A program made the translations under genes and the position numbers. From positions 1 to 60,436 of the forward strand of contig CAJTLA010000001.1 in assembly GCA_910576985.1 (NCBI GenBank): DNA of 60,436 nucleotides. The letters are read 5' to 3'. The notes beneath the pieces were generated by a model, which searched no databases, was not told the origin of the DNA, and worked only from the letters and a program-made list of their open reading frames with translations. Origin of the DNA: an uncultured Bacilli bacterium (GTDB lineage Bacteria > Bacillota_I > Bacilli_A > RF39 > UBA660). Of this stretch, positions 3,949-24,977 are shown in pieces (positions within the stretch are counted from its first letter, which is position 1; the number at the start of each line of letters is the position of its first letter).

Positions 3949-4190
3949 GGTATTATAAAAAATTATTTTTTACAAATGGATCAAAAAAAAAATTAGTTTT
4001 CACTAATATTTGTTCTTTTGATCACTTTATCATTTCCATAATTGTTTTTATATCAAAATTTTCTTTTCATATTTTTTCCAATTTTTCTTATTCGTATTGT
4101 TCAATACCCTATTCAAATTCTTTTATTCTCTCATATTTGTATAAAAAAAGCGAGATTTTATAATGACGTTTGGTTAAAATTTTGAACTGA

Positions 4191-5204: not shown

Positions 5205-5255
5205 AAAGTCAATCCCTTCTTTTATTAGAATAACACAATCTATACATTCCTGCAA

Positions 5256-7384: not shown

Positions 7385-7607
7385 TCTGTCTCCTCCTTTT
7401 TTTCCTATTATAGCATATATTCTTTTCATGATTTGTTACAAAACTGTAATTTTGTTTTTTTATCTAAACAAATGAATTATTGTGTATCATAAATTTCTTG
7501 TCTGTATCGTATTACTAATTTGCGATGTGATTTCTTTTTCTATTATAGCACACTAGTATTTTTTTTTGAAATAAGATATAATACTTTTATGGAAAGGAAG
7601 TTACCAA

Positions 7608-8024
7608 ATGAAACAACATTTTAAAAAATATGGAATGATTTATCAAATTATTTTAATCGCTGTTTGTATTATTTTATCTTGTGTTTTTGTATATTTTGGT
7701 TCTAAGAATCGAAAACAGCGTCATTACACAAAAGAGGAAGCAACCAATCTTATGAAGTTACAAGCGGATAAATTTACTAGAATGATTGAAATTCAAAATT
7801 CTGGTTGTATTGATCATGATACTACTACTCTATCTGAAAAAGAAATGGAAACTTATGGTTTTGATTCTCATTTTTATGAGAAAGTAATTTATACTATGAG
7901 CTGTAAAGATCATAAGCAAGTGATTGTTATTTCTATTACTGGTGCTGGTGATTTTAAGGGATATTCTTTAACGGACTACATTAGTAATAATAATCAACCT
8001 GAAAAAAATCTTAGTGAAAACTAG
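7608..8024 (+). CDS. Hypothetical membrane-anchored protein
   Basis: ORF with a GGAAAGGAAG RBS and one N-terminal TM segment. No family was recognised. Confidence 0.5.
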   Translation: MKQHFKKYGMIYQIILIAVCIILSCVFVYFGSKNRKQRHYTKEEATNLMKLQADKFTRMIEIQNSGCIDHDTTTLSEKEMETYGFDSHFYEKVIYTMSCKDHKQVIVISITGAGDFKGYSLTDYISNNNQPEKNLSEN

Positions 8025-8042
8025 GATTTTTTTAGTTAGGAA

Positions 8043-8064
8043 AAAAGATTAGAATTCTAATCTT
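8043..8064. terminator. Bidirectional terminator between convergent genes (overlaps the leuS stop)
   Basis: Perfect palindrome aaagattagaa/ttctaatcttt, flanked by an A-run and a T-run. Confidence 0.5.
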
Positions 8065-10456
8065 TCACTACAATGTTTACCAATTTTTTAGGAACAGTAA
8101 TCATTTTTACAATTTCTTTTCCTTCAAGGTTTTTCTTTACATTTTCAACTTCTAGGGCAAGACGTTCCATTTCTTCTTTGGTGGTATTGGTTGCTACTTC
8201 TATTTTTCCTCTGACTTTTCCATTCACTTGTACAATCATACAATAACTATCATCAATCGTTTTTGCTTCTTCATAAGTTGGCCATTTAGATTCACAAAGT
8301 GGGTCACCTAAGTGGTAAATCTCATTCAATTCTTCTGTTATATGAGGGGCAATTGGATTTAATAGGTGTAGAAATATACGATAATCCTCTTTGGTAATGG
8401 TTTCTAATTTTTCATAGTTATTTAATAAAATCATTAAAGCAGATACAGCAGTATTGTATTTCATTAATTCAATGTCATTGGTTACTTTTTTAATTGTTTG
8501 GTGAATTAGTGTTTCTAAACTATAACCTGTTTTGTCGTTTAAGGATTCTCCTAGTTTCCAAACACGGTCTAGAAAGCGCTTGCATCCTTTTAGACCATTG
8601 CTACTCCAAGCTGCTTCTTTTTCATAGTCACCAATAAACATTTCATAAGTTCTTAAGGCATCTGCTCCTAATTCTTCTACAATGTCATTTGGATTAATAA
8701 CGTTTCCCTTTGATTTGCTCATTTTTTCCCCATTGTCTCCTAAAATCATACCATGTGCTGTCCGAAGTTCAAATGGTTCTTTATTTGGTACTAATCCAAT
8801 ATTATAAAGGAATTGATTCCAAAATCTTGCATAAAGTAAGTGTCTTGTGGCGTGTTCCATTCCTCCATTATACCAATCTACTTTTCCCCAACAATTTAAT
8901 GCATCTTTGGAAACAAATTCATTTTCGTTATGGGCATCCATATAACGTAACCAATACCAACTAGAACCTGCCCAGTTTGGCATCGTGTCTGTTTCTCTTT
9001 TGGCATTCGCTCCACATTTTGGACAAGAAACATTCACCCAGTCTGTAATCTTCGCTAATGGGCTTTCTCCATCTTCTGTTGGTTCATAATGAGCGACTTC
9101 TGGTAATAACACTGGAAGTTCTTGTTCTCTTACAGGTACCCAACCGCAAGTATCACAATGGATCATTGGAATTGGTTCTCCCCAAAAACGTTGGCGAGAA
9201 AAAATCCAGTCTTGAAGTCGATAATTGGTTTTCCTTTTTCCTATTTTTTGTTCTTCTAAATAGTTCAACATTTTTTCAATAGATTCTTGTTTATTGGTAA
9301 GTCCATTTAAAATTCCTGAGTTTACCATTTCTCCATCCTGTGTATAGGCACTTTGTTTTATGTCTCCACCTTTAATGACTTCAATAATTGGAATATTAAA
9401 TTTTTTGGCAAATTCATAATCACGTTCATCATGGGCTGGAACTGCCATAATCGCTCCTGTTCCATAATGCATCATAACATAATCTCCTACCCAAATTTGA
9501 ATGTTTTCTCCATTTACTGGGTTTATCGCTTCTATTCCTTCTATTTTTACGCCTGTTTTTTCTTTGACTAATTCAGTTCTTTCAAATTCGGTTTTCATGC
9601 TTGTTTCTTCACGGTATTTGACAATTTCGCCAAAGTTTTGAATTTGATCTTTCATTGTTTCTAATATAGGATGTTCAGGTGCGACTACCATAAAGGTAAC
9701 TCCATATAATGTATCTGGTCTTGTTGTGTAGACTGTTAATGTTTCGTCAGAGTTTTTTATTTTAAATTCTACTTCTGCTCCTGTACTTTTTCCAATCCAA
9801 TTGATTTGTGCTGTTTTGATTCTTTCTTCAAATTGGTTATCATTTAATCCATCTAGTAATTGTTCTGCGTAATCACTCATACGAAGCATCCATTGTTCTT
9901 TTTCTTTTTGAACTACTTTAGATCCACAACGCTCACAAACACCTCCACTAGAGTCTTCATTTGATAAACCTGTTTTACAGTTTGGACACCAGTTGATATT
10001 TTTTTTGTCTTTATAAGCAAGTCCATGTTCATAAAATTTTAAAAATTGCCATTGTGTCCATTTATAGTATTCTGGGTCTGTTGTCGAGAATTCACGACTC
10101 CAATCATAGGAAATTCCTAAACTTTGGATTTGGGATTTGAATGTTTTTATGTTTTCTTTTACTGCTATGCTTGGATGAATTTTGTTTTTTATTGCGTATT
10201 GTTCTGCTGGGGCTCCAAATGCATCCCATCCCATTGGAAATAATACATTATATCCTTGCATTCTTCTTTTTCTAGCTAATGTGTCTAATGCTGTATAACT
10301 TCTAACATGTCCAACATGTAATCCTGCTCCTGATGGATATGGAAATTCTACTAAGATATAATATTTTTGCAATTCACTTTCATTTTTTGCTTCAAATGTT
10401 TTTTGTTCTTTCCAATATTTTTGCCATTTGTTTTCTATTCTTTTAAAATCATACAT
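8057..10456 (-). CDS. leuS: Leucine--tRNA ligase
   Basis: 799 aa. Contains PYPSGAGLHVGH (HIGH motif), KMSKSKGN (KMSKS motif), and the CP1 editing domain. Confidence 0.97.
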   Translation of the reverse strand: MYDFKRIENKWQKYWKEQKTFEAKNESELQKYYILVEFPYPSGAGLHVGHVRSYTALDTLARKRRMQGYNVLFPMGWDAFGAPAEQYAIKNKIHPSIAVKENIKTFKSQIQSLGISYDWSREFSTTDPEYYKWTQWQFLKFYEHGLAYKDKKNINWCPNCKTGLSNEDSSGGVCERCGSKVVQKEKEQWMLRMSDYAEQLLDGLNDNQFEERIKTAQINWIGKSTGAEVEFKIKNSDETLTVYTTRPDTLYGVTFMVVAPEHPILETMKDQIQNFGEIVKYREETSMKTEFERTELVKEKTGVKIEGIEAINPVNGENIQIWVGDYVMMHYGTGAIMAVPAHDERDYEFAKKFNIPIIEVIKGGDIKQSAYTQDGEMVNSGILNGLTNKQESIEKMLNYLEEQKIGKRKTNYRLQDWIFSRQRFWGEPIPMIHCDTCGWVPVREQELPVLLPEVAHYEPTEDGESPLAKITDWVNVSCPKCGANAKRETDTMPNWAGSSWYWLRYMDAHNENEFVSKDALNCWGKVDWYNGGMEHATRHLLYARFWNQFLYNIGLVPNKEPFELRTAHGMILGDNGEKMSKSKGNVINPNDIVEELGADALRTYEMFIGDYEKEAAWSSNGLKGCKRFLDRVWKLGESLNDKTGYSLETLIHQTIKKVTNDIELMKYNTAVSALMILLNNYEKLETITKEDYRIFLHLLNPIAPHITEELNEIYHLGDPLCESKWPTYEEAKTIDDSYCMIVQVNGKVRGKIEVATNTTKEEMERLALEVENVKKNLEGKEIVKMITVPKKLVNIVVKD

Positions 10457-10802
10457 ATTTATTCACTTCTTTCTTTTTATATTTCTGTCCTATGTAATGG
10501 TATCCTAAAATGATGAGTGGAATTAGTATTACAAATCCTACCAATAGTTTTACTATGTAATTTTCTATAAAATCTGTAATTAAAAAGGTAAGAGCAATAA
10601 TAAAACTGTTGGTTAAAGCAATGGATCGTGCAAATTTTTTTTTGTCTAATTTTTTTGGTTCCAATTTATATTTTTTAATAATAAATGATGCTTGTCCACT
10701 CTTTTCAAATGTCTCCATTTTTTGTTTGTTTTTGAGCACTGTAATATAATACAGCAGGTAAATGAAGAAAAAAACAATGATTGTTACTATAATACGTTCC
10801 AT
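10449..10802 (-). CDS. Small two-/three-TM membrane protein, co-transcribed with leuS
   Basis: AGGAGG RBS directly after the T-box leader. Overlaps leuS by 8 nt. No family was recognised. Confidence 0.55.
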   Translation of the reverse strand: MERIIVTIIVFFFIYLLYYITVLKNKQKMETFEKSGQASFIIKKYKLEPKKLDKKKFARSIALTNSFIIALTFLITDFIENYIVKLLVGFVILIPLIILGYHYIGQKYKKKEVNKYV

Positions 10803-11030
10803 AAAATCCTCCTACGAAAAAAGTACCATGATATAAGGACGAGTTTTCCCGCGGTACCACCTTACTTCATAATACTTTATTATGCGCTTTCCAGATAACG
10901 GCTGGGACCGCTTAATCGAACAGGATAAGTAAGTTCGGAATGGAAATATTCAGATTTTCACCAACCATCTGCTCTCTTTTTTTATTTCTCTTTTCTTACT
11001 ACTCTTATCTTTTTGTCTTTTTTTAACAAC
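10803..11030 (-). promoter_or_regulatory. T-box riboswitch leader, leucine-specific
   Basis: On the minus strand, in order: AGAGAG (AG bulge), GGTGAAA (distal loop), specifier loop GAA-CUU-A (CUU at 10931-10933), T-box sequence AAGGTGGTACCGCGGG (10848-10861), then a GTACC...GGTAC stem followed by T6. Confidence 0.85.
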
Positions 11031-11036
11031 ACGTTT

Positions 11037-11065
11037 ATTATAATATATATTTTTTTTTATTTCAA
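11037..11065 (-). promoter_or_regulatory. Sigma-A type promoter of the T-box/leuS transcript
   Basis: The minus strand reads TTGAAA (11060-11065), a 17-nt spacer, then TATAAT (11037-11042). Confidence 0.6.
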
Positions 11066-11070
11066 GTGTT

Positions 11071-13488
11071 TTATACTTGATTTACGTATTCTAATAGTTT
11101 TAAAAATAGTTTCATAAATTTTCGTTCTATGATATTTTTGTTTCCCATTTTACGTATTTCAATTCGTTTCTTTTTGATTGGAAGTTCTGGATCAAATAAT
11201 ACAGCATCTACTTTTTCTTTGGTTTCTGTTTCTATTTGTAAGTCACTAATGATCCCTTCTATTTCTTCATTAATTAGTCGAACGGCATCGATTTCTATGT
11301 CTTTTCCTTTGCAGTTAATGGTTAATTGGCCAATTGTTTTTACGTTTTTTACTTCTACAATAAAGTCATTTCCTTCTATATAGGATTCATATCCTAGTTG
11401 GGTATCGTTAAAGTATACGATGACTTCATTAGATTGTTTGGTGTTACGAAATCTAAATTTGTAATTGCGTGTTTCTGGTACAATTCCACTTTTTCCTTCT
11501 AATGCTCGTACAATCACTGTATAATTATTTGGCATATAGTTATAATCAATAGAGGTAAGCAGGTAAAATCCTTTTCGATATAAGTCACTTACTCCATCAT
11601 CTTCATACATTTTATATAAGTTACTTTGTCCTGGAAAAATTTGTATCTCTAGGTTTTTTGGTGGTGTAGTATCATTGAGATTGTCATTATCTCCAAGTGG
11701 GATAATTGATCCTGCTCTTACGAATACAGGATAGTCTTGATCTTTGAAAAACATGGTGTAGTTTCTTCCTCCTGGAAATTTTTTTCCTGTTACAAAGTCA
11801 TACCAAGTTCCGTCTGGCATGAAAAATTTATGGATCACGCGATTCATGACGTAGTCTTTTTTCTTGGTAATTGGTGAAACAAAGAAGGCACTTCCAAAAT
11901 AGTATTCGTCTTTATATAATGGGTCATCGTACATTTCTGGATATTTATAATAAATTGGTTCTATGAGTGGGGTTCCAAATTGATGATATTTATAAGCTTC
12001 TGTATATAGATATGGAATTAATCGATGGCGGAGTTGCAGGTAATCTTTTGTAATTTCATAAGTTTTTATACTCCAACGCCAAGGTTCTCTTTTGTAGTAT
12101 TTTCCTGCTTCTGCTCCAAATTTGAAAATAGGAGAAAAGACACCAAGTTGTACATATCGAATATAAAGTTCATTGTCTTCTGTTCCTTTGAAATATCCAC
12201 CAATATCGTGTGACCAAAAGCTTACTCCTATATTGGTTGCAGTTGCATTATGGAGTGGGATTCGTTTTAAGGTGTCCCATCCGACTGTTGTTTTCCCAGA
12301 GTATAATACTGGATAACGATGAGGAGCAACGAGTGAGTTATGTGCTAGTACCATTGGTCTTCTTTTGTAGTTTCTCATCATATCAAAAAATTGATAATGT
12401 TTTAATAGTTGTAATTCTCCGATTCTTTTTTTGTCAAAGTAATCAATCCAGAAGAAGTCGACTCCTGCTCCATCTAATGGATGAATAAATAGTTTTAAGT
12501 AAACGTCTACTGCTTTTGGGTCAAATACATGAAAAGGAATGACTCCATTTTTATCTGTTCCAAGGTAAGTTTTTGCTTTTTCGTAATATTCATCAATTGG
12601 GTAAAAGCCTTCCATTGGGCTGATATTGAGTCCTAATCGAATTCCTTTTGAGTGTAAATAGTTTGTCATATCTAGTGGAGATTGAAATAATTCTGTATTC
12701 CACGTAAAGCCTGTCATCAAGTGTTTGTCTTTAAAGTAAGTTCGTTTATGCCAATCTTTATCTAGTAATAACACAGATAGCGGAATTTCTTTCAAGCTGA
12801 AGTTATCGATCAGTTGTTTTAGTTCTATATCGTTATAAGTGATGTTTCTACTCCACCAGTTTCCTAATGCATATCTTGGGATTAGTGCTGGTTTTCCAGT
12901 TAGTGCAAAGTAATCTTTTAGGCAAAGGTCAAAGTCTTTATTATAACAAAATAAGTAAATGTCAATTCCTATATTTTCTCTTGGTGATAGTGTTCCGTTT
13001 TCATTTAAGAGGTCTGTTTTGGAGTCATCAATGCTTGCGAATCCATCTATGGAATATAGTGCTTTTCTATAAAGTACTTTTCCATGTTCATCTACTAATT
13101 CAGATCCAGGAGCACCAAAGTTACGAATTTCTGGATGTCCATAATACCATGCTCGATCTGTTTTTTTTAGGTGAACTTTTAGGTTTGACATTGGATTTAC
13201 TTTTCCACCGTTAAAGTTTTTTTCTTTTGTGTAAACCAATTTTAAGTATTCGGTTTCTAGTTCTAAGTAGTTGGCATCTTCTTTTTTAGTGAATGGAACT
13301 TCTGGTAAGTTTCGATACCAAATCAGGTTGGTTGGTCTATCTTCAAAGATGCCTTCTTCGTTATATTCTAGACGAATGAGTCGTTCTGTTAAGACTGTGA
13401 TGCGATATTTGTTTCCTTTTATAATTTGTTTTGGATTCATTAAAGCCAATTCTTGGTTTATTTTAAATTGTTCTCCTAAGTTATACAT
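11071..13488 (-). CDS. Glycoside hydrolase family 31 (alpha-glucosidase/alpha-xylosidase type)
   Basis: 805 aa. Contains GVDFFWIDY (nucleophile region) and FWSHDIGGY. It begins 15 nt after the pyk stop with its own GGAG RBS. Confidence 0.85.
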   Translation of the reverse strand: MYNLGEQFKINQELALMNPKQIIKGNKYRITVLTERLIRLEYNEEGIFEDRPTNLIWYRNLPEVPFTKKEDANYLELETEYLKLVYTKEKNFNGGKVNPMSNLKVHLKKTDRAWYYGHPEIRNFGAPGSELVDEHGKVLYRKALYSIDGFASIDDSKTDLLNENGTLSPRENIGIDIYLFCYNKDFDLCLKDYFALTGKPALIPRYALGNWWSRNITYNDIELKQLIDNFSLKEIPLSVLLLDKDWHKRTYFKDKHLMTGFTWNTELFQSPLDMTNYLHSKGIRLGLNISPMEGFYPIDEYYEKAKTYLGTDKNGVIPFHVFDPKAVDVYLKLFIHPLDGAGVDFFWIDYFDKKRIGELQLLKHYQFFDMMRNYKRRPMVLAHNSLVAPHRYPVLYSGKTTVGWDTLKRIPLHNATATNIGVSFWSHDIGGYFKGTEDNELYIRYVQLGVFSPIFKFGAEAGKYYKREPWRWSIKTYEITKDYLQLRHRLIPYLYTEAYKYHQFGTPLIEPIYYKYPEMYDDPLYKDEYYFGSAFFVSPITKKKDYVMNRVIHKFFMPDGTWYDFVTGKKFPGGRNYTMFFKDQDYPVFVRAGSIIPLGDNDNLNDTTPPKNLEIQIFPGQSNLYKMYEDDGVSDLYRKGFYLLTSIDYNYMPNNYTVIVRALEGKSGIVPETRNYKFRFRNTKQSNEVIVYFNDTQLGYESYIEGNDFIVEVKNVKTIGQLTINCKGKDIEIDAVRLINEEIEGIISDLQIETETKEKVDAVLFDPELPIKKKRIEIRKMGNKNIIERKFMKLFLKLLEYVNQV

Positions 13489-13503
13489 AGAATCAACTCC
13501 CTT

Positions 13504-14919
13504 TTATAATTCTTCTATTTTCATAAAGTTTGTATATTTTACTTCTTTGAATGGATATCCTCCTGTGATAATGATTTTGTCTCCATCATTAATGTCCATG
13601 AGCTTTTTTGTGATTTCTTTTGAGCGTTTGGTGATTTTATCAAATGAGCTAATTTCGTCTACCAAGACTGGTGTTATTCCAAAATGAAGGTTTAGACTTT
13701 TTACAGTACTAATATCAGGGCTTACTGCAATGATAGGACAGCTTGGTCGAAAACGGCTCATTTTTTTTGCGGTATATCCTGTTATGGTCGGGGCAATAAT
13801 TGCGCAACATTTTAGTCTATTAGCGCATTCTGTGACGCTATAGGCAATCATTCCTGTGATGTCTTGTTTTTCAGTTCGCATTGCTTTATCCAATAATTCT
13901 AAATAGTTAATTTCTTCTTCTGCTGATTCAATAATTTTTTCCATGATAGATAGTGTTTCTACTGGATATTTTCCAATTGTGGTTTCTCCTGAAAGCATTA
14001 CGGCATCGGTTCCATCTAATACTGCATTGGCGATATCGCTTACTTCTGCTCTTGTTGGTCTACTATTTGTTTCCATTGTTGATAATAGTTCGGTTGCGAC
14101 AATACTTACTTTTCCTATGTTATGACATTTACTAATGATACTTTTTTGAATTCCAGGAACTCGTTCCATTGGTATTTCTACTCCAAGGTCTCCTCTTGCA
14201 ATCATAATTCCTTCACTGACTCTGATAATTTCATCAATTTCTTCTACGGCTGATTCATTTTCGATTTTGGCAATGATTCCAATGTGATCGTTGTTTAATC
14301 CGATTAAAATATCATTAATTCCTAAGACGTCTTCTGCTGTGGAAACAAAGGAAAGGGCTAAATAGTCTACTTTCATTTGATTGGCAAACAAAATGTCTTT
14401 ATAGTCTTTTTCGCTTAGGAAAGGAAGAGATAGTTTTACGCCTGGGGCATTTAATGATTTATTATTTTCAATGGTTCCTTCTTTGATCACTTCGCATAAT
14501 AAATAGTTTGTTCCTTTTTCTAAGACTTGTAATTCGATAATTCCATCATCAATTTTTAAAATGGTATTATAGTGAACATCTTGAATTAAGTTTTTGTAAT
14601 TGACACTAAACTTTGTGTTATCACCAATTAGTTCTTCCATATAGATGCGAATTCGGTCTCCTTTTTTTAGCAAGGCTTTTCCTCCGACAAATTTTCCAAC
14701 TCTAACATTTGGTCCTTCTGTATCTAGCATAATAGAAACTACTGTGTTTAATTCTTTGTTGAGTTCTTGTATTTTATGGATGACATCTTTGCAAAAGTCA
14801 TAGTCAGCGTGACTTAGATTGAGTCGCGCGACTGACATTCCTTGATTGATTAATCCTTTTAAGCATTCTTTGGAATTGCTAGCAGGTCCTATGGTTGCTA
14901 TTATCTTAGTTTTATTCAT
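13504..14919 (-). CDS. pyk: Pyruvate kinase
   Basis: Sequence KTKIIATIGPAS...ARLNLSH...MLDTEGP...IAKIEN...MIARGDLGVEIP. Confidence 0.96.
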   Translation of the reverse strand: MNKTKIIATIGPASNSKECLKGLINQGMSVARLNLSHADYDFCKDVIHKIQELNKELNTVVSIMLDTEGPNVRVGKFVGGKALLKKGDRIRIYMEELIGDNTKFSVNYKNLIQDVHYNTILKIDDGIIELQVLEKGTNYLLCEVIKEGTIENNKSLNAPGVKLSLPFLSEKDYKDILFANQMKVDYLALSFVSTAEDVLGINDILIGLNNDHIGIIAKIENESAVEEIDEIIRVSEGIMIARGDLGVEIPMERVPGIQKSIISKCHNIGKVSIVATELLSTMETNSRPTRAEVSDIANAVLDGTDAVMLSGETTIGKYPVETLSIMEKIIESAEEEINYLELLDKAMRTEKQDITGMIAYSVTECANRLKCCAIIAPTITGYTAKKMSRFRPSCPIIAVSPDISTVKSLNLHFGITPVLVDEISSFDKITKRSKEITKKLMDINDGDKIIITGGYPFKEVKYTNFMKIEEL

Positions 14920-15947: not shown

Positions 15948-18900
15948 CTAAATCTTTTGTTGCTTATAGCACCCATTGCCATTAATCAAGTCAATTATTG
16001 CAATTATGATCTGAATTATATTCATTTGACCATCAAATAATTCTAGAATACTTCCATAATTAGTAAATGGATCTTCATTTAAAATACGTTTGTCTATTAC
16101 TCCATTTTTCATAATATAATTTTTAATTAAGTTTAGAAATCTTGTCTGTTCGACATTTAGTTCGTTATCATTTTCAAATTTAGAAAATTCTCTGTCTATT
16201 GCCTCCTTAGATAAACCAACAGTCTTTCTTACCAATAGTACTAGTGATTCATCATTATAGTTTATCTTATATTCTGCTTCATTTGAATTTAAATCAGCAA
16301 ATAATATTTCTTGTAATTTATTAATTTCTTTAGAACTAATTCTTTCATTATTTCTAATTTTATTAATAATTTCATTATCCATATGATTTTTCAAATAGAA
16401 ATTAATTTTTTTCTTATAATCAGATAAATCTTGTTGTTCAATTTTTCTGTCATCATGTTCAACTATATTAATATCATCACTAAAATCAGTGTAAACAGCT
16501 TTTCTAATTCTTTTTGGCAAATACTTGATTAACTCTCTTAACGAATCTCTTATTCTATCTATTTCAAAAATATCTGCTTTATTTATATAGTCCTCTTTTA
16601 ACAATTTTTGAACATCATCTTTTTTGTTAGCGACTTGTGGAATATTCATTAATCCTATAAGACCTTCTCCAATATGAGATAATCTACTTTTTTCTCTTTC
16701 ATATCTCATATTTAACATTTTTGATAATTCTATAGATAACATTAATCGGTCAAATTGTTTTGCAGTTTCATCATTATCATTTGACATAATTAATGAAGTC
16801 AAATTATCCTTAATTTCTTTTACTGCTAAATCAGTTAAATTATTCCAATTAACAATGTCTTTATACTTCTCAACATACTGCATTTTTTGTTTAACGTCAA
16901 ATTTTAAAGTATTAAGAGAAGAAATAGTATCAACGAGTTGTTCTAATAAAATATTTTTATACCACAAATATTCATTATCATTTAAGTAATCTACTTTCTG
17001 TAATTCTCTTAATATATCCACCTTCAATTCAAATATAAATTGCGATAGGCTCATTCCAATTGTACATTCTTTGCCTTTCGGATTTTGATCAAAAAATTCA
17101 AAATTTTGACAAGCATCAAATATATAAAATTCTTTTTTATCTTTCCCCCATCCGAACAAATCTGGACATAGTCTAGTTCCTCGACCAATCATTTGCAAAA
17201 ATTTAACTTTAGATTTTACTTCCTTAAAAAATACTAAATTTACTATTTCAGGAATATCAATTCCGGTATCTAACATATCTACGGATATTGCTATTTGTGG
17301 CATTTTAGTACAATCAGAAAAATCTTCTATGAGTGATGAATAATAATTTGTATGAATATCTATAACTCTAGCAAAATGTCCATTATACTGCGGAAATAAT
17401 ATATTAAACCTTTTTTCTATAACTTCAGCATGTTTATGATTTTTGGCAAATATAATGGTTTTACCAAGCTTATCATTGCTTTCCACTTTTAATCCCTTTT
17501 CCATCATAACAGTCAAAATTTTATCTATTGTATCATTGTTAAATAGCCAACTATTTATATCAGATGCTTTTACAGAATCAACTATCTCCTCATCTTCAGC
17601 AAATGTATCCTCAAATTCTTCTTTGTCTTTATCTGACAATTCATCATATTTAATACCATCTCTAATAAAACCAGTAGAACATTCAATTGTATGATAATCA
17701 ACTAGGAAACCATTAGCAACAGCTTCTTCATATTCATATGAATAGGTAGGTACATTATCCTGAAGTTCAAATATTTTATAAGTATTTTTATCTATATCAC
17801 TTCGAGGTGTAGCTGTTAATCCTAACAGTAATCCATCAAAGTATTCAAATATGGCTTGATATTTTTTGTAAATGCTTCTGTGAGCTTCATCAACTATAAT
17901 CAAATCAAAATGACCCACTGTAAATAGTTTCTTATCATCTTTTGTTTTTATATCATCAATTGCATTCATCATTGTTTGATAAGTAGAAAATACCATCCTT
18001 GCATTTTCAGCATTTTCTTTTTCAAAAGTTAAATTAATTGTAGATAATGATGGAATTAATTTATTAAAGCTCTTTTTGGCTTGTTTTACTAATTCTGCTC
18101 TGTCCGCTAAAAATAAGACATTCTTAACCCAATTTGAATTTGTTAGCACATCTACTATAGAAACTGCTGTTCTTGTCTTACCTGTTCCTGTGGCCATCAC
18201 TAACAATCCCTTTCTTTGATGATTGTTCAAATCATCGCAAAAAGCTTTAATGGCTTCCTGTTGATAAGTTCTATTAGTAATAGTATCATCTATAGATATA
18301 TTTTTTAAATCTTTTTTCAAAGTTCTTCTATCTATTAGTAATTGTAATTGTTCTTGTGTATAATAACCTGATACTTTTCTATACGGATAATTACAATCAT
18401 CCCACATATAAATATCAAACCCATTAGTAAAGAAAATTACTGGTCTTTGTCCATATTTATTTTCTAAACAATCAGCATATATTTTAGCTTGCTGCTGCCC
18501 AACTCTAGCATCCTTAGAAGTTCTTTTTGCTTCTACTAAAGCAACAGGCTTACCATTTGCACCCATTAGAACATAATCGACGAATCCGTCACCTGATACA
18601 TTCGGCATTCCAGTTACAGGCAACTCCTCAACCATATTTTTATTAATTTCCCATCCAGCTATTTCTAAATCTAAATCAATATATTGTTTACGAGTCTTAA
18701 ACTCTGATATATCTTTAATATCAAATGGAATAGAACTTTCTCTTTGTTTTCTTATTTTTGAAGTTTCATTTCTTAATGATTCAAATTCTTTTTGTAGTTG
18801 TTCAATTGTCTTCTCATTAGCTTCTAATCTTTCTAATAGTTCTAATTTTTCTTTTTCTAATGCTTTATTATTTACAGGGTCAGAAACAATAGATTCATTA

Positions 18901-19304
18901 AATCGATGTTCAATATAATTATCACAATATAAATATGTGATCCATAGCATAAAGTCATGTAAATTTTTTAATGATAATAATGATTCTTGTTTTTTTATTT
19001 TTGTATTGCTATGAACTGCTTGATTACCAAGTTTTTGAATATAAATTATTTTTTTCAATAAATTAGTATCTATAATATTTTTAAAATTTCTATCATGAAT
19101 TAAAGTAGCTAAAGTTTGTTGATAAGGTATTTTTAAATCTCCATCTACACCGTATACCCATTTAATCCCTAACTCTAAAGCTTTTCTAGACATAATAGCA
19201 CTAGTTGTTGCTGTTATAGTTAAACTTCTTTCAGCCTCAATACAAGCATTTTTAATATCAATCAATCTGCTATCACTTATAAAATCAAAATTTGACATCA
19301 TCAA
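15948..19304 (-). CDS. hsdR: Type I restriction enzyme R subunit
   Basis: 1118 aa. It has an N-terminal DUF4145-like region and a PD-(D/E)XK nuclease region (VDYVL...VEAKR). Helicase motifs are MATGTGKT and IIVDEAH. The C-terminus is EcoEI-R-like. Confidence 0.93.
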   Translation of the reverse strand: MMMSNFDFISDSRLIDIKNACIEAERSLTITATTSAIMSRKALELGIKWVYGVDGDLKIPYQQTLATLIHDRNFKNIIDTNLLKKIIYIQKLGNQAVHSNTKIKKQESLLSLKNLHDFMLWITYLYCDNYIEHRFNESIVSDPVNNKALEKEKLELLERLEANEKTIEQLQKEFESLRNETSKIRKQRESSIPFDIKDISEFKTRKQYIDLDLEIAGWEINKNMVEELPVTGMPNVSGDGFVDYVLMGANGKPVALVEAKRTSKDARVGQQQAKIYADCLENKYGQRPVIFFTNGFDIYMWDDCNYPYRKVSGYYTQEQLQLLIDRRTLKKDLKNISIDDTITNRTYQQEAIKAFCDDLNNHQRKGLLVMATGTGKTRTAVSIVDVLTNSNWVKNVLFLADRAELVKQAKKSFNKLIPSLSTINLTFEKENAENARMVFSTYQTMMNAIDDIKTKDDKKLFTVGHFDLIIVDEAHRSIYKKYQAIFEYFDGLLLGLTATPRSDIDKNTYKIFELQDNVPTYSYEYEEAVANGFLVDYHTIECSTGFIRDGIKYDELSDKDKEEFEDTFAEDEEIVDSVKASDINSWLFNNDTIDKILTVMMEKGLKVESNDKLGKTIIFAKNHKHAEVIEKRFNILFPQYNGHFARVIDIHTNYYSSLIEDFSDCTKMPQIAISVDMLDTGIDIPEIVNLVFFKEVKSKVKFLQMIGRGTRLCPDLFGWGKDKKEFYIFDACQNFEFFDQNPKGKECTIGMSLSQFIFELKVDILRELQKVDYLNDNEYLWYKNILLEQLVDTISSLNTLKFDVKQKMQYVEKYKDIVNWNNLTDLAVKEIKDNLTSLIMSNDNDETAKQFDRLMLSIELSKMLNMRYEREKSRLSHIGEGLIGLMNIPQVANKKDDVQKLLKEDYINKADIFEIDRIRDSLRELIKYLPKRIRKAVYTDFSDDINIVEHDDRKIEQQDLSDYKKKINFYLKNHMDNEIINKIRNNERISSKEINKLQEILFADLNSNEAEYKINYNDESLVLLVRKTVGLSKEAIDREFSKFENDNELNVEQTRFLNLIKNYIMKNGVIDKRILNEDPFTNYGSILELFDGQMNIIQIIIAIIDLINGNGCYKQQKI

Positions 19305-19386
19305 CCAACTCCAAATTTAATAATCTCAACATAATTTTACCATAAATTCGACAATTTACCTATAATTTCCAGCATTTTCGCACTTA

Positions 19387-19411
19387 CAAATTTCTGTTTA
19401 TCGATTTGTTC
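19387..19411. repeat. hsdS distal conserved-region repeat, copy 2 (exact 25 nt)
   Basis: caaatttctgtttatcgatttgttc is identical to 20855-20879, in direct orientation. Confidence 0.9.
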
Positions 19412-19682
19412 TACTATTTTAGCAAACTTATTTTGTAGTTCAATTGGTGGTAATATTATAATTAGTCTATTTAACATTTGTTGATTAATATTATTAATAT
19501 TTTCACCTCTATTATCCTTCTTTTTCTTTACTTCCGTTTGATCTAACAAAAACTATATCATTGTTTTGTAAGTAATAATTCGGATTAATTTTATCATTTA
19601 AAACAATTTTATCTAGCTGTTCCATTTTAAATATTATCTTTCCATTTTTAAAGTTTCCTATATTTCCTAAATTATCAGTTTC

Positions 19683-19737
19683 CCACTTTTTATCATTTGT
19701 AACTGGATCACCAAACATCTCGACAAACTGAGATTTT
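19683..19737. repeat. hsdS central conserved-region repeat, copy in the silent cassette
   Basis: 55 nt, matching 21348-21402 at 52/55 positions, in direct orientation. It includes an exact 27-mer, ccaaacatctcgacaaactgagatttt. Confidence 0.9.
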
Positions 19738-19745
19738 GAAATGTA

Positions 19746-20736
19746 CTAGCAAATATATTTATGATGAGATAATTTAACATTATTTTGATTAACTATAGTA
19801 TATTGTAATGTAGTATCTATTTTGGCATGACCTAATAATCTCTGTGCTTGTTCTATTGGCATTCCCTTATCAATTGCTTTTGTTGCCATAGTTCTTCTAA
19901 ACTTATGAGGATGCACCCTTTGTAGCTCTAAATCTCTTCCTAATTTTCTTAATCTTATTTCTCCCCCACTAATTTCTAGTCTGTCATAGGGTGAGAGCAA
20001 GCTAACAAATAAAGCTAGATTATCATCATTTCTCATTGATAAATATTTCTCTAAATGTAATTTAGTCCTTGCGTCAAAATAAATTTCTCTTTCCTTACTA
20101 CCTTTACCAAATACAATACATAATCTATCTTCAAAACTAATATCATTTTTATTTAATTTAACTAATTCACCTACTCTCACTCCTGTAGAAGTTAAAAAAT
20201 CTATCAATGCTAAGTCTCTTATTTCCTCACAACTATCTCTTAACTTTTCTATTGTTTCATCTGAATATGTCTCTCGCACTACTTTGGTTGTTTTAATTTT
20301 ATGTATTCTTCTAATCGGACTTTTTATAATATAATCTTCATCTTCAAGCCAAGAAAAGAAGCTAGAAAATATTCTTCTAACATTATCTATAGTTACTTTA
20401 CTACAATTATTTTTTTCCTGATATGATGTTAAATAACCCCTTAAATCATCAGTATCTACAGTTTTAATTTCTTTCTTTATTTGTTCTAACATGTTATCTA
20501 TTGTTGTCTTATAATAATTTAATGTCCTTTTCTGAGCAACCTTCTACTTTTTTTGATGAAATAAATAGTTCTGCATAATCTACATCATCCTTTTTATTCT
20601 TTTCCACTTCAATTACATCATATTTATATAAATTATATTCTAAAATTTCATTTAGTTTTTCTAATTGATAGTTATTTAAATATGAGTTCATTTCAGAATT
20701 AATTGTTCTAATTAAACTATTCTTCATATATACCAA
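19746..20736 (-). pseudogene. Tyrosine site-specific recombinase (phage-integrase/Xer-like) inside the hsd locus, split by a 1-nt frameshift
   Basis: The upstream ORF (20509-20736) ends ...KKVEGCSEKDIKLL*. Shifting one base near 20512-20527 reads CSEKTLNYYKTTIDNMLEQ..., which continues into ORF 19746-20492. That ORF has the catalytic HPHKFRRT and LLGHAKIDTTLQY motifs. Confidence 0.8.
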
Positions 20737-20786
20737 TCCCCATTTTTAGAACGGCATATATTATAACATAGAAAAAAAAGAGCGTT

Positions 20787-21926
20787 TTAATCAAAATACT
20801 CCTGCATCAATGATGACTTCATTTCTTCTAATTTTTTTAAGCTCTTTTCAAATTCAAATTTCTGTTTATCGATTTGTTCAAAGATTTCACCAAAACGAAT
20901 TTGAAGATCTAATGGTGGAAAAATAAACTCTAAATTACCTAATTGATTTTTACTAAGTATTCCCTTCAGAGACATATTTACTGGTGTATGAAGATATTTT
21001 TTAGACAAAACAAATTGCTCATACATAAAATAAACATTATTACTCTTTGGATTAATTCCATTTATTTGTTGATTAAAGGATACTTTACGATTTGTTATAC
21101 CTACATTTCCTATGGAATTTAAACTTCCTGCAATGCATGTCATTAATATGCAACCACTGTCTAAATATCGGCCTACCCTTAAGCCTTCAAAAGATAATGA
21201 TTCTTTTGCCTTTGTTAGATATGTATAATCATTTAATATATTGTCAGATTTTATCCATTCAATATCGTCTCCATAATATGAACCAACTTTTCTTGAAGGA
21301 GTATTTCCTGTTGTAATTTCACATTCATCAAATAATCTTCTTTTTTTCCACTTTTTATCATTTGTGATTGGATCTCCAAACATCTCGACAAACTGAGATT
21401 TTATAATATTATTACAACAAATTATTTGTTTTTTTCTTATATCTATATTATTATAAACTTTATCAAAAACCTTAATTATTTTATATTGGATCTCTAATGA
21501 TGGTATTTCTAAATTATATTCTTTTAACCACTCAGTGCTCATATTCAATTGTGCTATCCCTTGCGATGAATTTATACAATCAAATTCAAATTTTTTAGAA
21601 TTTAAAATATAATATAAAAATTTAGGTATTACTTTTTCCTTATTCACTCGTAAACAACATACTCGTTGATTTAAATATGCAGGTAAAAATTCTTTTGTAA
21701 CCAATGCACATCTTCCAACATTTCCTGTTAGAGAAATTAACAAGTCATTTTCTTGTAATTCATATTTTTCTAATTGACTATCAAATTCATAAAATACAGG
21801 TTTTTCATCTTCTATAAAACCAGATTGAACATTTGTTATTCTAATTACTCTATGTCCATCATTTACATATTTTGAACTTTTAAAGGCATATCCATTTAAT
21901 ACATTTGAAATTTCTTTAATTTTCAT
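20787..21926 (-). CDS. hsdS: Type I R-M specificity subunit, full length (two TRDs)
   Basis: 379 aa. TRD1 is followed by the central region KSQFVEMFGDPITNDKKW, then TRD2, then the distal region FPPLDLQIRFGEIFEQIDKQKF and a coiled-coil tail. Confidence 0.9.
   Translation of the reverse strand: MKIKEISNVLNGYAFKSSKYVNDGHRVIRITNVQSGFIEDEKPVFYEFDSQLEKYELQENDLLISLTGNVGRCALVTKEFLPAYLNQRVCCLRVNKEKVIPKFLYYILNSKKFEFDCINSSQGIAQLNMSTEWLKEYNLEIPSLEIQYKIIKVFDKVYNNIDIRKKQIICCNNIIKSQFVEMFGDPITNDKKWKKRRLFDECEITTGNTPSRKVGSYYGDDIEWIKSDNILNDYTYLTKAKESLSFEGLRVGRYLDSGCILMTCIAGSLNSIGNVGITNRKVSFNQQINGINPKSNNVYFMYEQFVLSKKYLHTPVNMSLKGILSKNQLGNLEFIFPPLDLQIRFGEIFEQIDKQKFEFEKSLKKLEEMKSSLMQEYFD
20855..20879. repeat. hsdS distal conserved-region repeat, copy 1
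   Basis: Exact 25-nt match to 19387-19411. Confidence 0.9.
21348..21402. repeat. hsdS central conserved-region repeat, copy in the full-length hsdS
   Basis: 55 nt, 52/55 identical to 19683-19737, in direct orientation. Confidence 0.9.
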
Positions 21927-22468
21927 AGATACATCTCCTTAACAAACTGAGATTTGACTAGCTGTTCCAATTTACCTATCTGATTACTTTTTATGTTAAT
22001 TAGATTGTCTATCATTGTTAATCTCTCTATTATTTTTTCTTGTTCGCTTATAGTTGGTATATACTTTATTATTATTTTACTCAATCCTTCATTATTTAGT
22101 GCTTTCTGTGTGGCTCCTGAACATAATCTATTTTTTTTCGAATTAAATGATTCTGAGTTTAAATAATAATACAAATATTTTTGCATAACATTGTTATTAG
22201 GCGTTAAAACATAAAATCCTGTAGAATATATATTATTTATATTATCATTATTAGCACACAAAGTTTTAATAGTATCTTTCATCTTTGTAAATAAAACATC
22301 GCTATCATCAATCTGAACATTTGCTCTTGAGGGCTTGTCTTTATAAGATACACTTTCAAAATTTATTATTTCGTTATTTATAACCTCTCCCGTTGCAACA
22401 TATTTCTTCAATCTCTGATATTTCTTTACGGATTTCCCACCAACTTTGCAAATATCTAATAGTTTCAT
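21923..22468 (-). CDS. hsdS: Half-size Type I specificity subunit (single TRD plus conserved helix)
   Basis: 181 aa. The ATG immediately follows the hsdM TAG. The TRD ends in ...IGKLEQLVKSQFVKEMYL*, exactly at the central conserved region. An ATGA overlap links it to the full-length hsdS. Confidence 0.75.
   Translation of the reverse strand: MKLLDICKVGGKSVKKYQRLKKYVATGEVINNEIINFESVSYKDKPSRANVQIDDSDVLFTKMKDTIKTLCANNDNINNIYSTGFYVLTPNNNVMQKYLYYYLNSESFNSKKNRLCSGATQKALNNEGLSKIIIKYIPTISEQEKIIERLTMIDNLINIKSNQIGKLEQLVKSQFVKEMYL
21931..21954. repeat. Partial third copy of the central hsdS repeat, at the 3' end of the half-size hsdS
   Basis: catctc..acaaactgagattt shares an exact 14-mer (acaaactgagattt) with the other two copies. 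It encodes SQFVKEM. Confidence 0.7.
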
Positions 22469-23917
22469 CTATAGCAACTCCTCTAGCTCTTTAAGTTGTT
22501 TTTGAAATTCTTCTTCCATATCCATAATTTGTTTTAATATTACTTTAGGATCTTCGTATTTTATTTTTTCTTGAATAATTTCTTTATATTTATTAATTGA
22601 TAAATCATAATCATTTTTGATTATTTCTTCTTTTGGAACAAAGAAAGATTTGTCTGTTCTCTGTCTATTTTCTTCAGAAGATAGATTATTATACCTTTTT
22701 ATAATATCTGGAATATCATTTTCTTGTGTTGGAGTTCTTTTAGCATCTAAACTGAAACCATCGGCTGTCATATCATAAAACCATACTTTATCTGTACCTC
22801 CAGTAGTTGTTTTAGTAAATATCATTACTGCTGTAGACACTCCTGCATATGGTTGAAATACTCCACTAGGCATAGAAATTATAGCTTCTAGTTTATTATT
22901 CTCTACTATTTCTTTTCTAATTGATTTATGTGCATTACTACTTCCAAACAATACACCATCAGGTACTATACAAGCACATCTGCCGCCTATTTTTAGACTT
23001 CTTAAAAATAATGCTAAAAATAATAATTCTGTTTTCTTAGTATTACAAATTTTTGATAAAGATGGAGATATTGTTGTTTCATCAATAGAACCTTTAAATG
23101 GAGGATTAGCTAATATTAATGAATACTTATCAGTATCTGTATTTTCTCCTGAGGCAGAATCTTTATATTCGATATTAGGATTATCGATTCCATGCATTAT
23201 CATATTCATTGCACTAATACTTAACATAGTATCATCAGTATCAAAACCATAAAACATTTCATTATTAAAATGATATTTTGTACTTTCACTATTAAATATA
23301 TCTGGGTAATTTTTTCTTAAATATTCACTTGATTCAAGTAGGAATCCACCTGTACCACATGCTGGATCACAAATTGTATCGATTGGAGTTGGTTTAACTA
23401 ATTCAACCATCATTTTAATAATGTGTCTAGGAGTTCTAAATTGACCATTTCTTCCTGCTGTTGCAAGTTTAGAAAGTAAATATTCGTAAATATCTCCTTT
23501 CGTATCTCTATCTTTCATTGGAATAGAGTCTAATTTGGTTACAACCTTTTCTAATACTAAGGCACTTGGAACCATAAATATTGATTTTTCCATATATTTT
23601 GAGAAAGATGAATCCTTTCCAGCTTTTAAATTTTTAATAAATGGAAAAATTTTAGTAGTCATTAGGTTAAACATTGCATCTGCTGATAAATTTTTAAATT
23701 TACTCCATCTACAGTTTTGGTGTTCTTCATCAAATATTCTATTAAATTTAACTCCTAATAATTGCTCTGTTTGCTCATTATTAGTTTCCACTTCGTCTAA
23801 TCCTTTTATAAACAACAAATATGTCATTTGCTTAATTACAGATAATGGATCTGTCATGCCACCATTTGCAAAATCTAGCCATATTGAATCGATTTTATTT
23901 TGAATAGCTTTTTCCAT
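22469..23917 (-). CDS. hsdM: Type I R-M N6-adenine DNA methyltransferase subunit
   Basis: Contains an HsdM N-terminal domain, motif I DPACGTGGFL and motif IV LANPPF. Confidence 0.95.
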   Translation of the reverse strand: MEKAIQNKIDSIWLDFANGGMTDPLSVIKQMTYLLFIKGLDEVETNNEQTEQLLGVKFNRIFDEEHQNCRWSKFKNLSADAMFNLMTTKIFPFIKNLKAGKDSSFSKYMEKSIFMVPSALVLEKVVTKLDSIPMKDRDTKGDIYEYLLSKLATAGRNGQFRTPRHIIKMMVELVKPTPIDTICDPACGTGGFLLESSEYLRKNYPDIFNSESTKYHFNNEMFYGFDTDDTMLSISAMNMIMHGIDNPNIEYKDSASGENTDTDKYSLILANPPFKGSIDETTISPSLSKICNTKKTELLFLALFLRSLKIGGRCACIVPDGVLFGSSNAHKSIRKEIVENNKLEAIISMPSGVFQPYAGVSTAVMIFTKTTTGGTDKVWFYDMTADGFSLDAKRTPTQENDIPDIIKRYNNLSSEENRQRTDKSFFVPKEEIIKNDYDLSINKYKEIIQEKIKYEDPKVILKQIMDMEEEFQKQLKELEELL

Positions 23918-23945: not shown

Positions 23946-24377
23946 TTAATTCAAGTCATTTCTAAAGTATTTTGAATTTTCTTTAAACAACAAATAATTT
24001 ATATTGTAACCAAGTTCTTTTAAATATTTAATCATAAATATTACTGTTGTTCTAGTATTACCCTCCATAAAAGGATGCACTTGCCAAATACAAAAAGTAA
24101 AATTAGATACACTTATTATTTGATCTGATGCACTTAACTTTTTATAATCTTCTTGTCTTTCATCAGAAAAATCATAAATAAGATAGTCTTTAACCCTATT
24201 ATAATCACAATATACTACCGTATCACCATTCAATATTGCTTCATTTTTTGAGATATTAACTTCCCTAAACTTGCCAGCAAACTCATAGACATCTTTAAAT
24301 AAAAAGTAATGAACATATTTATAAAAATCTATCGTTAAATAAAACATATCCTTTTGTAATATTTGCATAATTCTCAA
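23946..24377 (-). pseudogene. Fic/DOC-family protein, N-terminally truncated, with a non-canonical active-site motif
   Basis: Contains FLFKDVYEFAGKFREVNISK and HPFMEGNTRTTV, versus the canonical HxFx(D/E)GNGRxxR. There is no ATG: the frame opens only about 20 codons upstream, after a stop. The best available start is a TTG. Confidence 0.6.
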
Positions 24378-24415
24378 TGATACAAAATCACATTCATGTC
24401 TATTATAGCTATTGT

Positions 24416-24550
24416 TTAGATCATCATATATTTCTTTAGTTTACTTTCTAATTCATCAAATGATATTTCGTTCTTAATATTTAATTTCACTAATTCTTTC
24501 AGATATTCAGAAGGTGTTAAATTATCAACTTGCTGTAGTCCAATTGCCAT
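24416..24550 (-). CDS. Possible VbhA-like Fic antitoxin mini-ORF (44 aa), fused in frame behind AbiEii debris
   Basis: MAIGLQQVDNLTPSEYLKELVKLNIKNEISFDELESKLKKY resembles the VbhA-type pattern (LEGLxPSxE...GEISxDE). The inhibitory (S/T)xxxE(G/N) motif is not intact. Confidence 0.35.
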   Translation of the reverse strand: MAIGLQQVDNLTPSEYLKELVKLNIKNEISFDELESKLKKYMMI

Positions 24551-24977
24551 TTTCCATCTACTATTATACTTTCCACGTCTTAAAACAGTTGATAATATAG
24601 TTTCAATATTATAGCTATTGATTAAAATACTTCTATCTTCAAATAATAATGGATATTTAAATTTCAATTCTTTTGATGTTACTTTATCATCAATAAATAT
24701 ATCAATTTCTAGATTTACTTTAGTGCTATTTATTCTGCCAGTAATATGATATTTATTACCATCATATTCATCTTCTTCTCTTATATCAGTAATACTTACA
24801 ATATCAAATTTAACTCCATCATTACAGCAAGTAATAATCCCCCTTTAATATAAAATTATCTTGATATTTTGAAACAGATATTCTTTCAAACATAAATCTT
24901 TGTAATGATTCATAATAATTTAAATTATATTTATCTTCAAGCTCTTTAGCTTTTAATTTAATTTTTCCTTCTACCAT
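24551..24977 (-). pseudogene. AbiEii/AbiGii-family nucleotidyltransferase toxin, inactivated
   Basis: It starts at an ATG overlapping the AbiEi stop: MVEGKIKLKAKELEDKYNLNYYESLQRFMFERISVSKYQDNFILKG. The frame then breaks at a C5/G5 run (24839-24843). The segment that should carry the catalytic DxD is missing. The frame resumes as DGVKFDIVSITDIREEDEYDGNKY...YNIETILSTVLRRGKYNSRWK. Confidence 0.75.

Follow-up and report, generated by a model that had tools for sequence, protein, structure and literature searches.

A direct-repeat Type I restriction-modification locus in an uncultured mouse-gut bacterium, probably a locked and partly decayed switch of the pneumococcal tvr type

Here we describe a Type I restriction-modification (R-M) locus of an uncultured Bacilli bacterium (GenBank assembly GCA_910576985.1), carried on contig CAJTLA010000001.1, whose 60,436 nucleotides are referred to below as the window. 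The host is a low-GC bacterium (29.9% G+C) of the mouse gut with a genome of about 1.4 Mb, and the window is one entire contig (C1) of a 1.38-Mb assembly that comprises 102 contigs and is 95% complete. Between hsdM and hsdR the locus holds four half-hsdS modules, A to D, each with one target recognition domain (TRD), and a broken gene for a tyrosine recombinase, every gene being on the minus strand. Most probably (roughly 0.8 by our estimate) this is a locked, partly decayed Type I R-M operon of the tvr (SpnIV) type, known from pneumococci. Both the mechanism and the architecture of such systems are already known, and the window adds a locked, partly decayed example.

Anatomy of the locus

Open reading frames (ORFs) and Pfam matches give the order hsdM, modules, tyrosine recombinase, module, hsdR. 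Module A comes first, followed by B-C, the recombinase and D, which is the "3+1" arrangement.

22469-23917, minus strand: hsdM, 482 aa, intact and equal in length to that of relatives; Pfam N6_Mtase (6e-68) and HsdM_N
21923-22468, minus strand: module A, a single-TRD half hsdS of 181 aa; Pfam Methylase_S (3.7e-13)
20787-21926, minus strand: complete hsdS, modules B and C, 379 aa; Pfam Methylase_S (1.9e-37, two stretches)
20509-20727, minus strand: N-terminal fragment of the recombinase, 72 aa (MKNSLIRT...), ending in a premature TAA
20525-20535, minus strand: frameshift site, with one extra base at about 20528-20533 (gctcAgaaaagg against gttc-ggaaagg in the intact gene)
19746-20492, minus strand: C-terminal ORF of the recombinase, 248 aa; Pfam Phage_integrase (3e-29)
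19412-19722, minus strand: remnant of module D, about 117 codons in two frames, not functional
15948-19304, minus strand: hsdR, 1118 aa, intact, EcoAI/EcoEI-like; Pfam ResIII and EcoEI_R_C, NCBIfam PRK11448 and the EcoAI family

HsdM, an HsdS with two TRDs and an HsdR with helicase and EcoEI_R_C domains are all uninterrupted, which identifies the operon as a Type I R-M system. Module A begins right after the hsdM stop codon, ends in KSQFVKEMYL and overlaps the next gene by ATGA; this layout (written a.J.b below) recurs in the related loci L016, L018 and L006, and module A is the counterpart of the first, immobile module of the tvr "3+1" arrangement. The B-C gene, which starts via the ATGA overlap and an AAGGAG ribosome-binding site, falls among full-length homologues of 375-391 aa and is probably the expressed, active specificity gene. 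Since hsdM, hsdS(B-C) and hsdR are uninterrupted, an enzyme of fixed specificity probably remains.

The recombinase gene is split by a 1-nt insertion, located by DNA alignment with the intact relatives L013 and L006, so that the frame ends after 72 codons. Among the matches listed, almost all of the 120 closest homologues of the recombinase measure 326 aa. The 248-aa ORF retains the catalytic R, K, HxxR, H and Y, without the first ~78 residues that include the start of the core-binding domain; its SAM-like domain is matched from profile position 31 on only, and its score of 204.9 bits against NCBIfam NF040815 lies under the cut-off of 220, compared with 253.5 for an intact homologue. The NCBIfam assignment goes no further than XerA-like recombinases. 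The second lesion is in module D, part of a two-frame hsdS remnant at 19337-19737, which has about 117 codons against 170-177 in intact C-terminal modules; compared with its best intact relative (198 aa) it has lost blocks of ~23 and ~50 aa (~73 codons) and changed frame.

Two classes of repeat accompany the modules, as in tvr: a midpoint repeat flanking the N-terminal modules and a tail-end repeat of about 70 nt after the C-terminal modules, all in one orientation.

21942-21955, minus strand: midpoint repeat, copy 1, the 14-nt core AAATCTCAGTTTGT followed by AAGGAG and the start of module B
21344-21402, minus strand: midpoint repeat, copy 2, core at 21388-21401
19679-19737, minus strand: midpoint repeat, copy 3, core at 19723-19736, 9 nt after the recombinase stop codon
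20855-20924, minus strand: tail-end repeat, copy 1, perfect 25-nt core GAACAAATCGATAAACAGAAATTTG at 20855-20879; 70 nt at 79%
19337-19456, minus strand: tail-end repeat, copy 2, core at 19387-19411 with the hsdR-proximal tail (...VSAKMLEIIGKLSNLW and stop)

A comparison of 19300-22500 with itself on both strands (blastn) reproduced the two direct matches given in an earlier, sequence-only reading of this stretch: 19683-19737 with 21348-21402 (52/55 identical) and 19387-19411 with 20855-20879 (25/25). When extended, midpoint copies 2 and 3 share 55/59 nucleotides with a longest perfect run of 27, and the tail-end copies agree at 79% over 70 nt. That reading had also placed a partial midpoint copy at 21931-21954; a third copy does exist close by, with its exact core at 21942-21955. 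The window has three occurrences of the 14-mer where shuffles predict 0.08; the whole assembly contains no more than these three, and just two of the 25-mer, the same strand being used throughout. No inverted match longer than 15 nt was found in the self-comparison of 19300-22500, and inverted repeats inside oppositely oriented hsdS genes, the hallmark of an inverton, were found neither in the locus nor anywhere in the 1.38-Mb assembly. Likewise, a six-frame search of the whole assembly with PF01420 returned hsdS-like sequence at the four places in the locus and at no other, all four on the minus strand. The claims that all conserved repeats are direct, that the plus strand bears no hsdS and that the fourth module is degraded are thus borne out. 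Midpoint-like sites on two other contigs (C51 and C53) have one mismatch, no hsdS nearby and a frequency at chance level, and were dismissed.

Only 59 nt separate the hsdS stop codon from the recombinase start, and a folded element occupies this junction.

20760-20803, minus strand: element with a terminator-like hairpin over the hsdS stop codon and a U8 run (20772-20803; from folding)

The fold has a z score of -2.5 for the 111-nt stretch 20725-20835 and is kept in relatives, and 3' of the U8 hairpin, ahead of the recombinase, lies TGTTATAAT at 20760-20768. A second hairpin over the recombinase ribosome-binding region is also kept in relatives. The two hairpins may control expression of the recombinase, the first of them possibly as an attenuator, with TGTTATAAT as a candidate promoter of the recombinase's own. 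In a scan for promoter and terminator consensus sequences, promoter-like sites were no more numerous than in shuffles and no terminator-like site fell in the region.

Upstream of hsdM, at 23946-24977, an AbiEii gene is reduced to a 51-aa ORF and a Fic gene to fragments of 83 and 143 aa. In relatives (L013) AbiEii (283 aa) and Fic (274 aa) stand directly before hsdM, and about 700 nt of this region are missing in the window. Decay of the window copy is therefore not limited to the switch.

Arrangements of the locus in close relatives

Contigs with the same co-directional layout, and with intact 326-aa recombinases 95-96% identical to the window ORF, were found in two further lineages, also from the mouse gut. 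On the basis of hsdR sequence, three near-clonal lineages can be defined:

Lineage I: L006-L010, with 0 differences in 3354 nt of hsdR; L011-L012 placed by module and recombinase identity; recombinase intact
Lineage II: L013-L020, with 0-3 differences in hsdR; recombinase intact
Lineage III: the window and L021-L026, 100% identical over up to 10.9 kb; recombinase frameshifted

In what follows, a and b denote N-terminal modules of the relatives, x, y and z C-terminal modules, J a short junction that ends a and starts b, T1 the tail leading to the recombinase (rec) and T2 the tail leading to hsdR.

Lineages I and II show the arrangements a-x/rec/b-z, a-z/rec/b-x, a.J.b-x/rec/z, a.J.b-y/rec/x and a-y/rec/x, together with forms carrying two recombinases; all four permutations predicted by the tvr scheme are present, between clonal flanks. 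Block maps show pure permutations with a constant length from hsdM to hsdR. In L015 and L016, which have identical hsdR genes and equal locus length, the sole difference is a swap of two adjacent blocks bounded by three midpoint repeats, and between L013 and L014 modules x and z have changed places, bounded by a midpoint repeat and a tail repeat. The crossover positions are precise: each left context (a, b or the recombinase) occurs joined to every right context (J.b, x, y and z) exactly at the 14-nt core, and every C-terminal module occurs joined to both tails exactly at the 25-nt core. Module a invariably adjoins hsdM.

Two Logan contigs, each 1693 nt long and from a different run, repeat their first 30 nt at the other end and therefore close a cycle of 1663 nt consisting of module x, tail T1 and the recombinase; the ends of one fall at the midpoint repeat, those of the other at the tail repeat. 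This cycle would be either the predicted circle or a tandem copy, both of which arise by direct-repeat recombination. L005/L006, L008, L017 and L121 carry the recombinase twice, in identical copies within tandem module-tail-recombinase units; a second circle may have integrated there, exchange may have been unequal, or the assembly may have followed a path through a mixed population. Lineages I and II are also mosaic (L006 against L016): identity is 99.6-99.9% in hsdM and modules a, b and x, 96.3% in the tail and recombinase and 93.5% in hsdR; a segment of the locus has been swapped between them.

Lineage III presents another picture. Six further contigs are identical to the window over up to 10.9 kb, namely those of two other NCBI metagenome-assembled genomes and the Logan contigs of four runs, so that the same frameshift and the same A.B-C/rec/D arrangement occur in all seven assemblies. 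A search of 5.8 billion proteins with the B-C product returned the exact protein in its own cluster only, the next best match being 76% identical, and this database held no protein joining B or C at high identity to another module. Of the three lineages, only this one, whose enzyme is broken, has no rearranged alleles, showing one arrangement and no recombinant HsdS. An apparent variant at the first midpoint repeat of L022 (383-419) consists of ten N followed by an Illumina adapter and was rejected as an assembly artefact.

Searches of JGI metagenomes extended the comparison to more distant loci. Seven contigs carry the exact 25-nt core; four of these encode the recombinase or the window's type of hsdM (recombinase 88-91% and HsdM 74-78% identical to those of L013), and in these four the exact 14-nt core is present wherever the contig spans the midpoint position, always as a direct copy. 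None of the seven is a post-excision form of lineages I or II, and a 31-nt tail pattern, used to look for that form (a module running straight into the hsdR-side tail, the recombinase being absent), had no match in the JGI metagenomes. Two loci, L119 (core at 5555-5579) and L123 (reverse strand, 3982-4006), have the order hsdM, hsdS, hsdR with the exact 25-nt core and no recombinase, and L123 also retains the 14-nt core; these loci may have lost the circle, or may simply be relatives of the ordinary kind.

The proposed switch and its alternatives

These arrangements can be accommodated in the excision and re-insertion scheme known from tvr. The half-hsdS modules would form a co-directional array, in which each N-terminal module is followed by a midpoint repeat and each C-terminal one by a tail-end repeat; from this array the tyrosine recombinase would excise a small circle carrying its own gene and one or two modules. 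Excision would proceed by recombination between two copies of one repeat class and would be followed by re-insertion at another copy, so that a permuted choice of modules is fused into the hsdS beside hsdM. From a starting form a-MPR-x-TER-T1-rec-MPR-J.b-MPR-z-TER-T2 (MPR, midpoint repeat; TER, tail-end repeat), excision between the first and third midpoint repeats and re-insertion via the tail repeat would give a-z/rec/b-x, whereas excision between the first and second and re-insertion at the third would give a.J.b-x/rec/z. The exchanges are presumably catalysed by the recombinase, with the free circle as their likely intermediate. In the window, the 1-nt insertion that splits the recombinase and the decay of module D would have locked the switch, leaving hsdM, hsdS(B-C) and hsdR of fixed specificity together with the half-HsdS of module A. 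Exactness of the cores, retained in loci whose HsdM is only 74-78% identical, further supports a tvr-type reading.

The sequence-only reading had regarded the locus as a shufflon frozen or decaying in one configuration. For the window copy this holds, given its frameshifted recombinase, gutted module D, seven identical assemblies and the lack of any rearranged allele of its modules in the protein database; as a reading of the direct layout it does not. Recombination between direct repeats had been expected to be one-way and inactivating, but relatives with an intact recombinase carry every permutation at constant length: excision at one repeat class and re-insertion at another copy reshuffles the modules without loss, so an all-direct layout is not itself a sign of decay. 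Nor is the layout that of an abnormal shufflon, since it matches the normal architecture of tvr and is shared by about a third of the related recombinase loci compared in other species. The rearranged alleles of lineages I and II also contradict a possibility raised at that stage, that the repeats might be mere hsdS conservation.

Several considerations weigh against the interpretation as a locked tvr-type switch. Free circles and within-sample mixtures would be indicated at most indirectly, by assembled contigs and not by reads; the relatives' arrangements come from metagenome assemblies, in which the junctions are real k-mers and the phasing along a contig could be chimeric; and the cyclic contigs may be tandem duplications, not free circles. 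The seven assemblies of lineage III are not all independent samples, three of the runs having consecutive accessions. By its layout and repeats, not by orthology of its recombinase with TvrR, the locus would be assigned to the tvr type, and the Phd/Doc-type tvrAT pair is absent from its excisable segment. Finally, weak excision persisted without TvrR in tvr, so that "locked" may mean "very slow".

A switch still active in the window has to be weighed, whether through the 248-aa ORF, rare +1 ribosomal frameshifting, another Xer-type recombinase acting in trans or a recombinase-independent route on the 27-nt perfect midpoint stretch. The intact catalytic residues of the C-terminal ORF and the perfection of all five repeat cores speak for such activity, as do the circles still detectable, at a reduced level, in tvrR deletion mutants. 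We nevertheless consider it improbable, in view of the single arrangement in seven assemblies and of a protein database devoid of recombinant HsdS. The internal ATG has no Shine-Dalgarno sequence, no slippery motif is present, and a programmed frameshift is not conserved, because the sister lineages keep an uninterrupted 326-aa ORF; moreover, three of the four possible states would make use of the dead module D.

A second alternative concerns the relatives: homologous recombination, gene conversion or horizontal exchange among strains, or else chimeric assembly, could have produced their arrangements in place of recombinase activity. That the evidence comes from assemblies, not reads or experiments, leaves room for this, and the mosaic structure of lineages I and II means that homologous exchange does occur at the locus. 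As the source of the permutations these routes are very improbable, however: all crossovers fall within 14 nt, a length that RecA could not use efficiently for exchange, the flanks are clonal, the locus keeps a constant overall length, and cyclic contigs exist. In addition, the sole lineage that does not vary is the one with a broken recombinase, diverged loci conserve the cores at synonymous positions, and any likeness between the two repeat classes is seen only across opposite strands, which homology of the encoded proteins cannot explain. It is scarcely credible that the repeats reflect ordinary helix conservation among duplicated hsdS genes with the recombinase as an unrelated passenger, for although both cores lie within conserved helix-coding parts of hsdS and the recombinase-less L119 and L123 keep core sequences, the recombinase sits 9-27 nt from a midpoint repeat, in the same place, in every related locus, exchange takes place at the cores, the same recombinase family lies between hsdS pieces in 20 all-direct and 30 inverted loci of other species, and the junction permutations of the relatives already contradict it.

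The likeness between the repeat classes is itself unusual. The reverse complement of the extended midpoint repeat (AACATCTCGACAAACTGAGATTTGAAA) agrees with the tail repeat (AACAAATCGATAAACAGAAATTTGTAA) at 21/27 positions, a value reached by 0/300 shuffles, while comparison in the same orientation gives 9/14 at best, no better than chance. The same inverted relation is seen in most of 12 distant all-direct loci, L067, L072, L074, L082, L085, L101 and L112 being listed for it. Since the two sites are on opposite coding strands, protein homology cannot account for this likeness. The midpoint and tail repeats may thus be one recombinase site in two versions with differing central bases, of which only like copies recombine. 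A bolder proposal, tentative and on balance unlikely, is that the two are opposite, non-cross-recombining versions of one ~26-bp site conserved from Bacillota to Bacteroidota and Spirochaetota, that all-direct loci form an old lineage apart from invertons, and that the 1.7-kb recombinase minicircle is a semi-autonomous cassette that amplifies in tandem and moves modules between strains. If true, a module-carrying minicircle cassette would explain the mosaic lineages I and II.

For the tvr-type switch that we favour, the three lineages amount to a natural comparison, in which every permutation is seen in the two clonal lineages whose recombinase is intact, and none in the frameshifted one. This contrast supports the view that recombinase-driven excision and re-insertion also take place in uncultured gut bacteria, beyond the streptococci. 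In practical terms, an all-direct hsdS array beside a recombinase should be read as a tvr-type switch and not as a broken inverton. For the genome that carries the window, the likely consequence is a single fixed methylation specificity.

Relation to known phase-variable Type I systems

When one genome per species was scanned, at least 528 loci with a related recombinase came to light, the best 80 of which, with recombinases 60-70% identical, were kept; they come from gut and oral Bacillota, Bacteroidota, Spirochaetota, Fusobacteriota and others. Layouts were counted in the 57 loci flanked on each side by 1.5 kb or more. In 30 of the 57 an hsdS piece lies on the opposite strand, and 20 (about a third) had hsdS pieces on both sides, all co-directional and with no inverted repeat; in most of these 20, direct repeats of 18-64 nt (550 nt in one) span the recombinase. 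With about a third of the sampled loci all-direct, surveys limited to inverted repeats would undercount phase-variable Type I systems. In a quick maximum-likelihood tree, a single clade (Shimodaira-Hasegawa-like approximate likelihood-ratio test, SH-aLRT, 92) takes in 30 of the 31 inverted-type loci, and the window recombinase stands among the all-direct loci; this tree is only indicative, because it is midpoint-rooted and related loci share labels. One inverted-type example comes from a complete 2.0-Mb genome of the same class (L031 of G034, 3727-14059): a Type I locus with a 60%-identical recombinase and an opposite-strand hsdS piece, in which an insertion sequence (transposase and integrase-core ORFs) lies between hsdM and hsdS.

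Among described systems, epigenetic invertons include the pneumococcal ivr/cod/SpnD39III locus (PsrA/CreX) and those of Bacteroides fragilis, Treponema denticola and Enterococcus faecalis, and vary by inversion at inverted repeats (Huang et al. 2020, PMC7672463). The window locus resembles them in being of Type I, in its spare hsdS modules and in having a tyrosine recombinase of its own, and recombinases 60-65% identical to its own serve loci with inverted hsdS pieces. It differs in having no inverted repeat and no hsdS on the opposite strand, and the quick-tree clade that unites 30 of the 31 inverted-type loci does not include its recombinase. A small proportion of recombinase-linked Type I systems has been suggested to use excision and re-integration instead, among them, in one sentence, an hsdS locus of Sphaerochaeta halotolerans with direct repeats (PMC7672463); by its description, that locus is like the window in having direct, not inverted, hsdS repeats.

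The closest counterpart is pneumococcal tvr (SpnIV; Kwun 2018), with the recombinase TvrR (clade 2 of Huang et al. 2020), for which the excision and re-insertion scheme was shown experimentally (PMC6265443). There, hsdM and hsdR are the outer genes, and four modules give four arrangements of the "2+1", "3+1" and "2+2" kinds with the hsdM-proximal module unmoved; a midpoint repeat of ~18 bp and a tail-end repeat of ~70 bp have one orientation, and a circular intermediate contains the recombinase gene (PMC6265443). Circles appear at a reduced level in tvrR deletion mutants, and natural locked variants are isolates without full tail-end repeats (PMC6265443).

No pneumococcal match occurs among the 80 best recombinase loci or among the named members of the recombinase cluster, and several features set the two systems apart. 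Here no Phd/Doc-type tvrAT pair stands by the recombinase, where tvr has this pair and an attenuator ahead of its own, and a Fic/DOC-family gene lies instead upstream of hsdM in relatives and is broken in the window; the repeat classes are alike only when inverted (21/27), whereas those of tvr reportedly share an 11-bp core in the same orientation; and the host is an uncultured low-GC bacterium of the mouse gut. The likenesses are nonetheless extensive. Both systems have the co-directional order hsdM, modules, tyrosine recombinase, module(s), hsdR, a short midpoint repeat by the N-terminal modules and a ~70-bp tail-end repeat after the C-terminal ones, and a recombinase gene inside the excisable segment. 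The 2+1, 3+1 and 2+2 arrangements, with the first module fixed, occur in tvr and here in the close relatives of the window. Locked variants, too, exist in both, through loss of repeats in tvr and, in the window, through a recombinase frameshift and the decay of a module.

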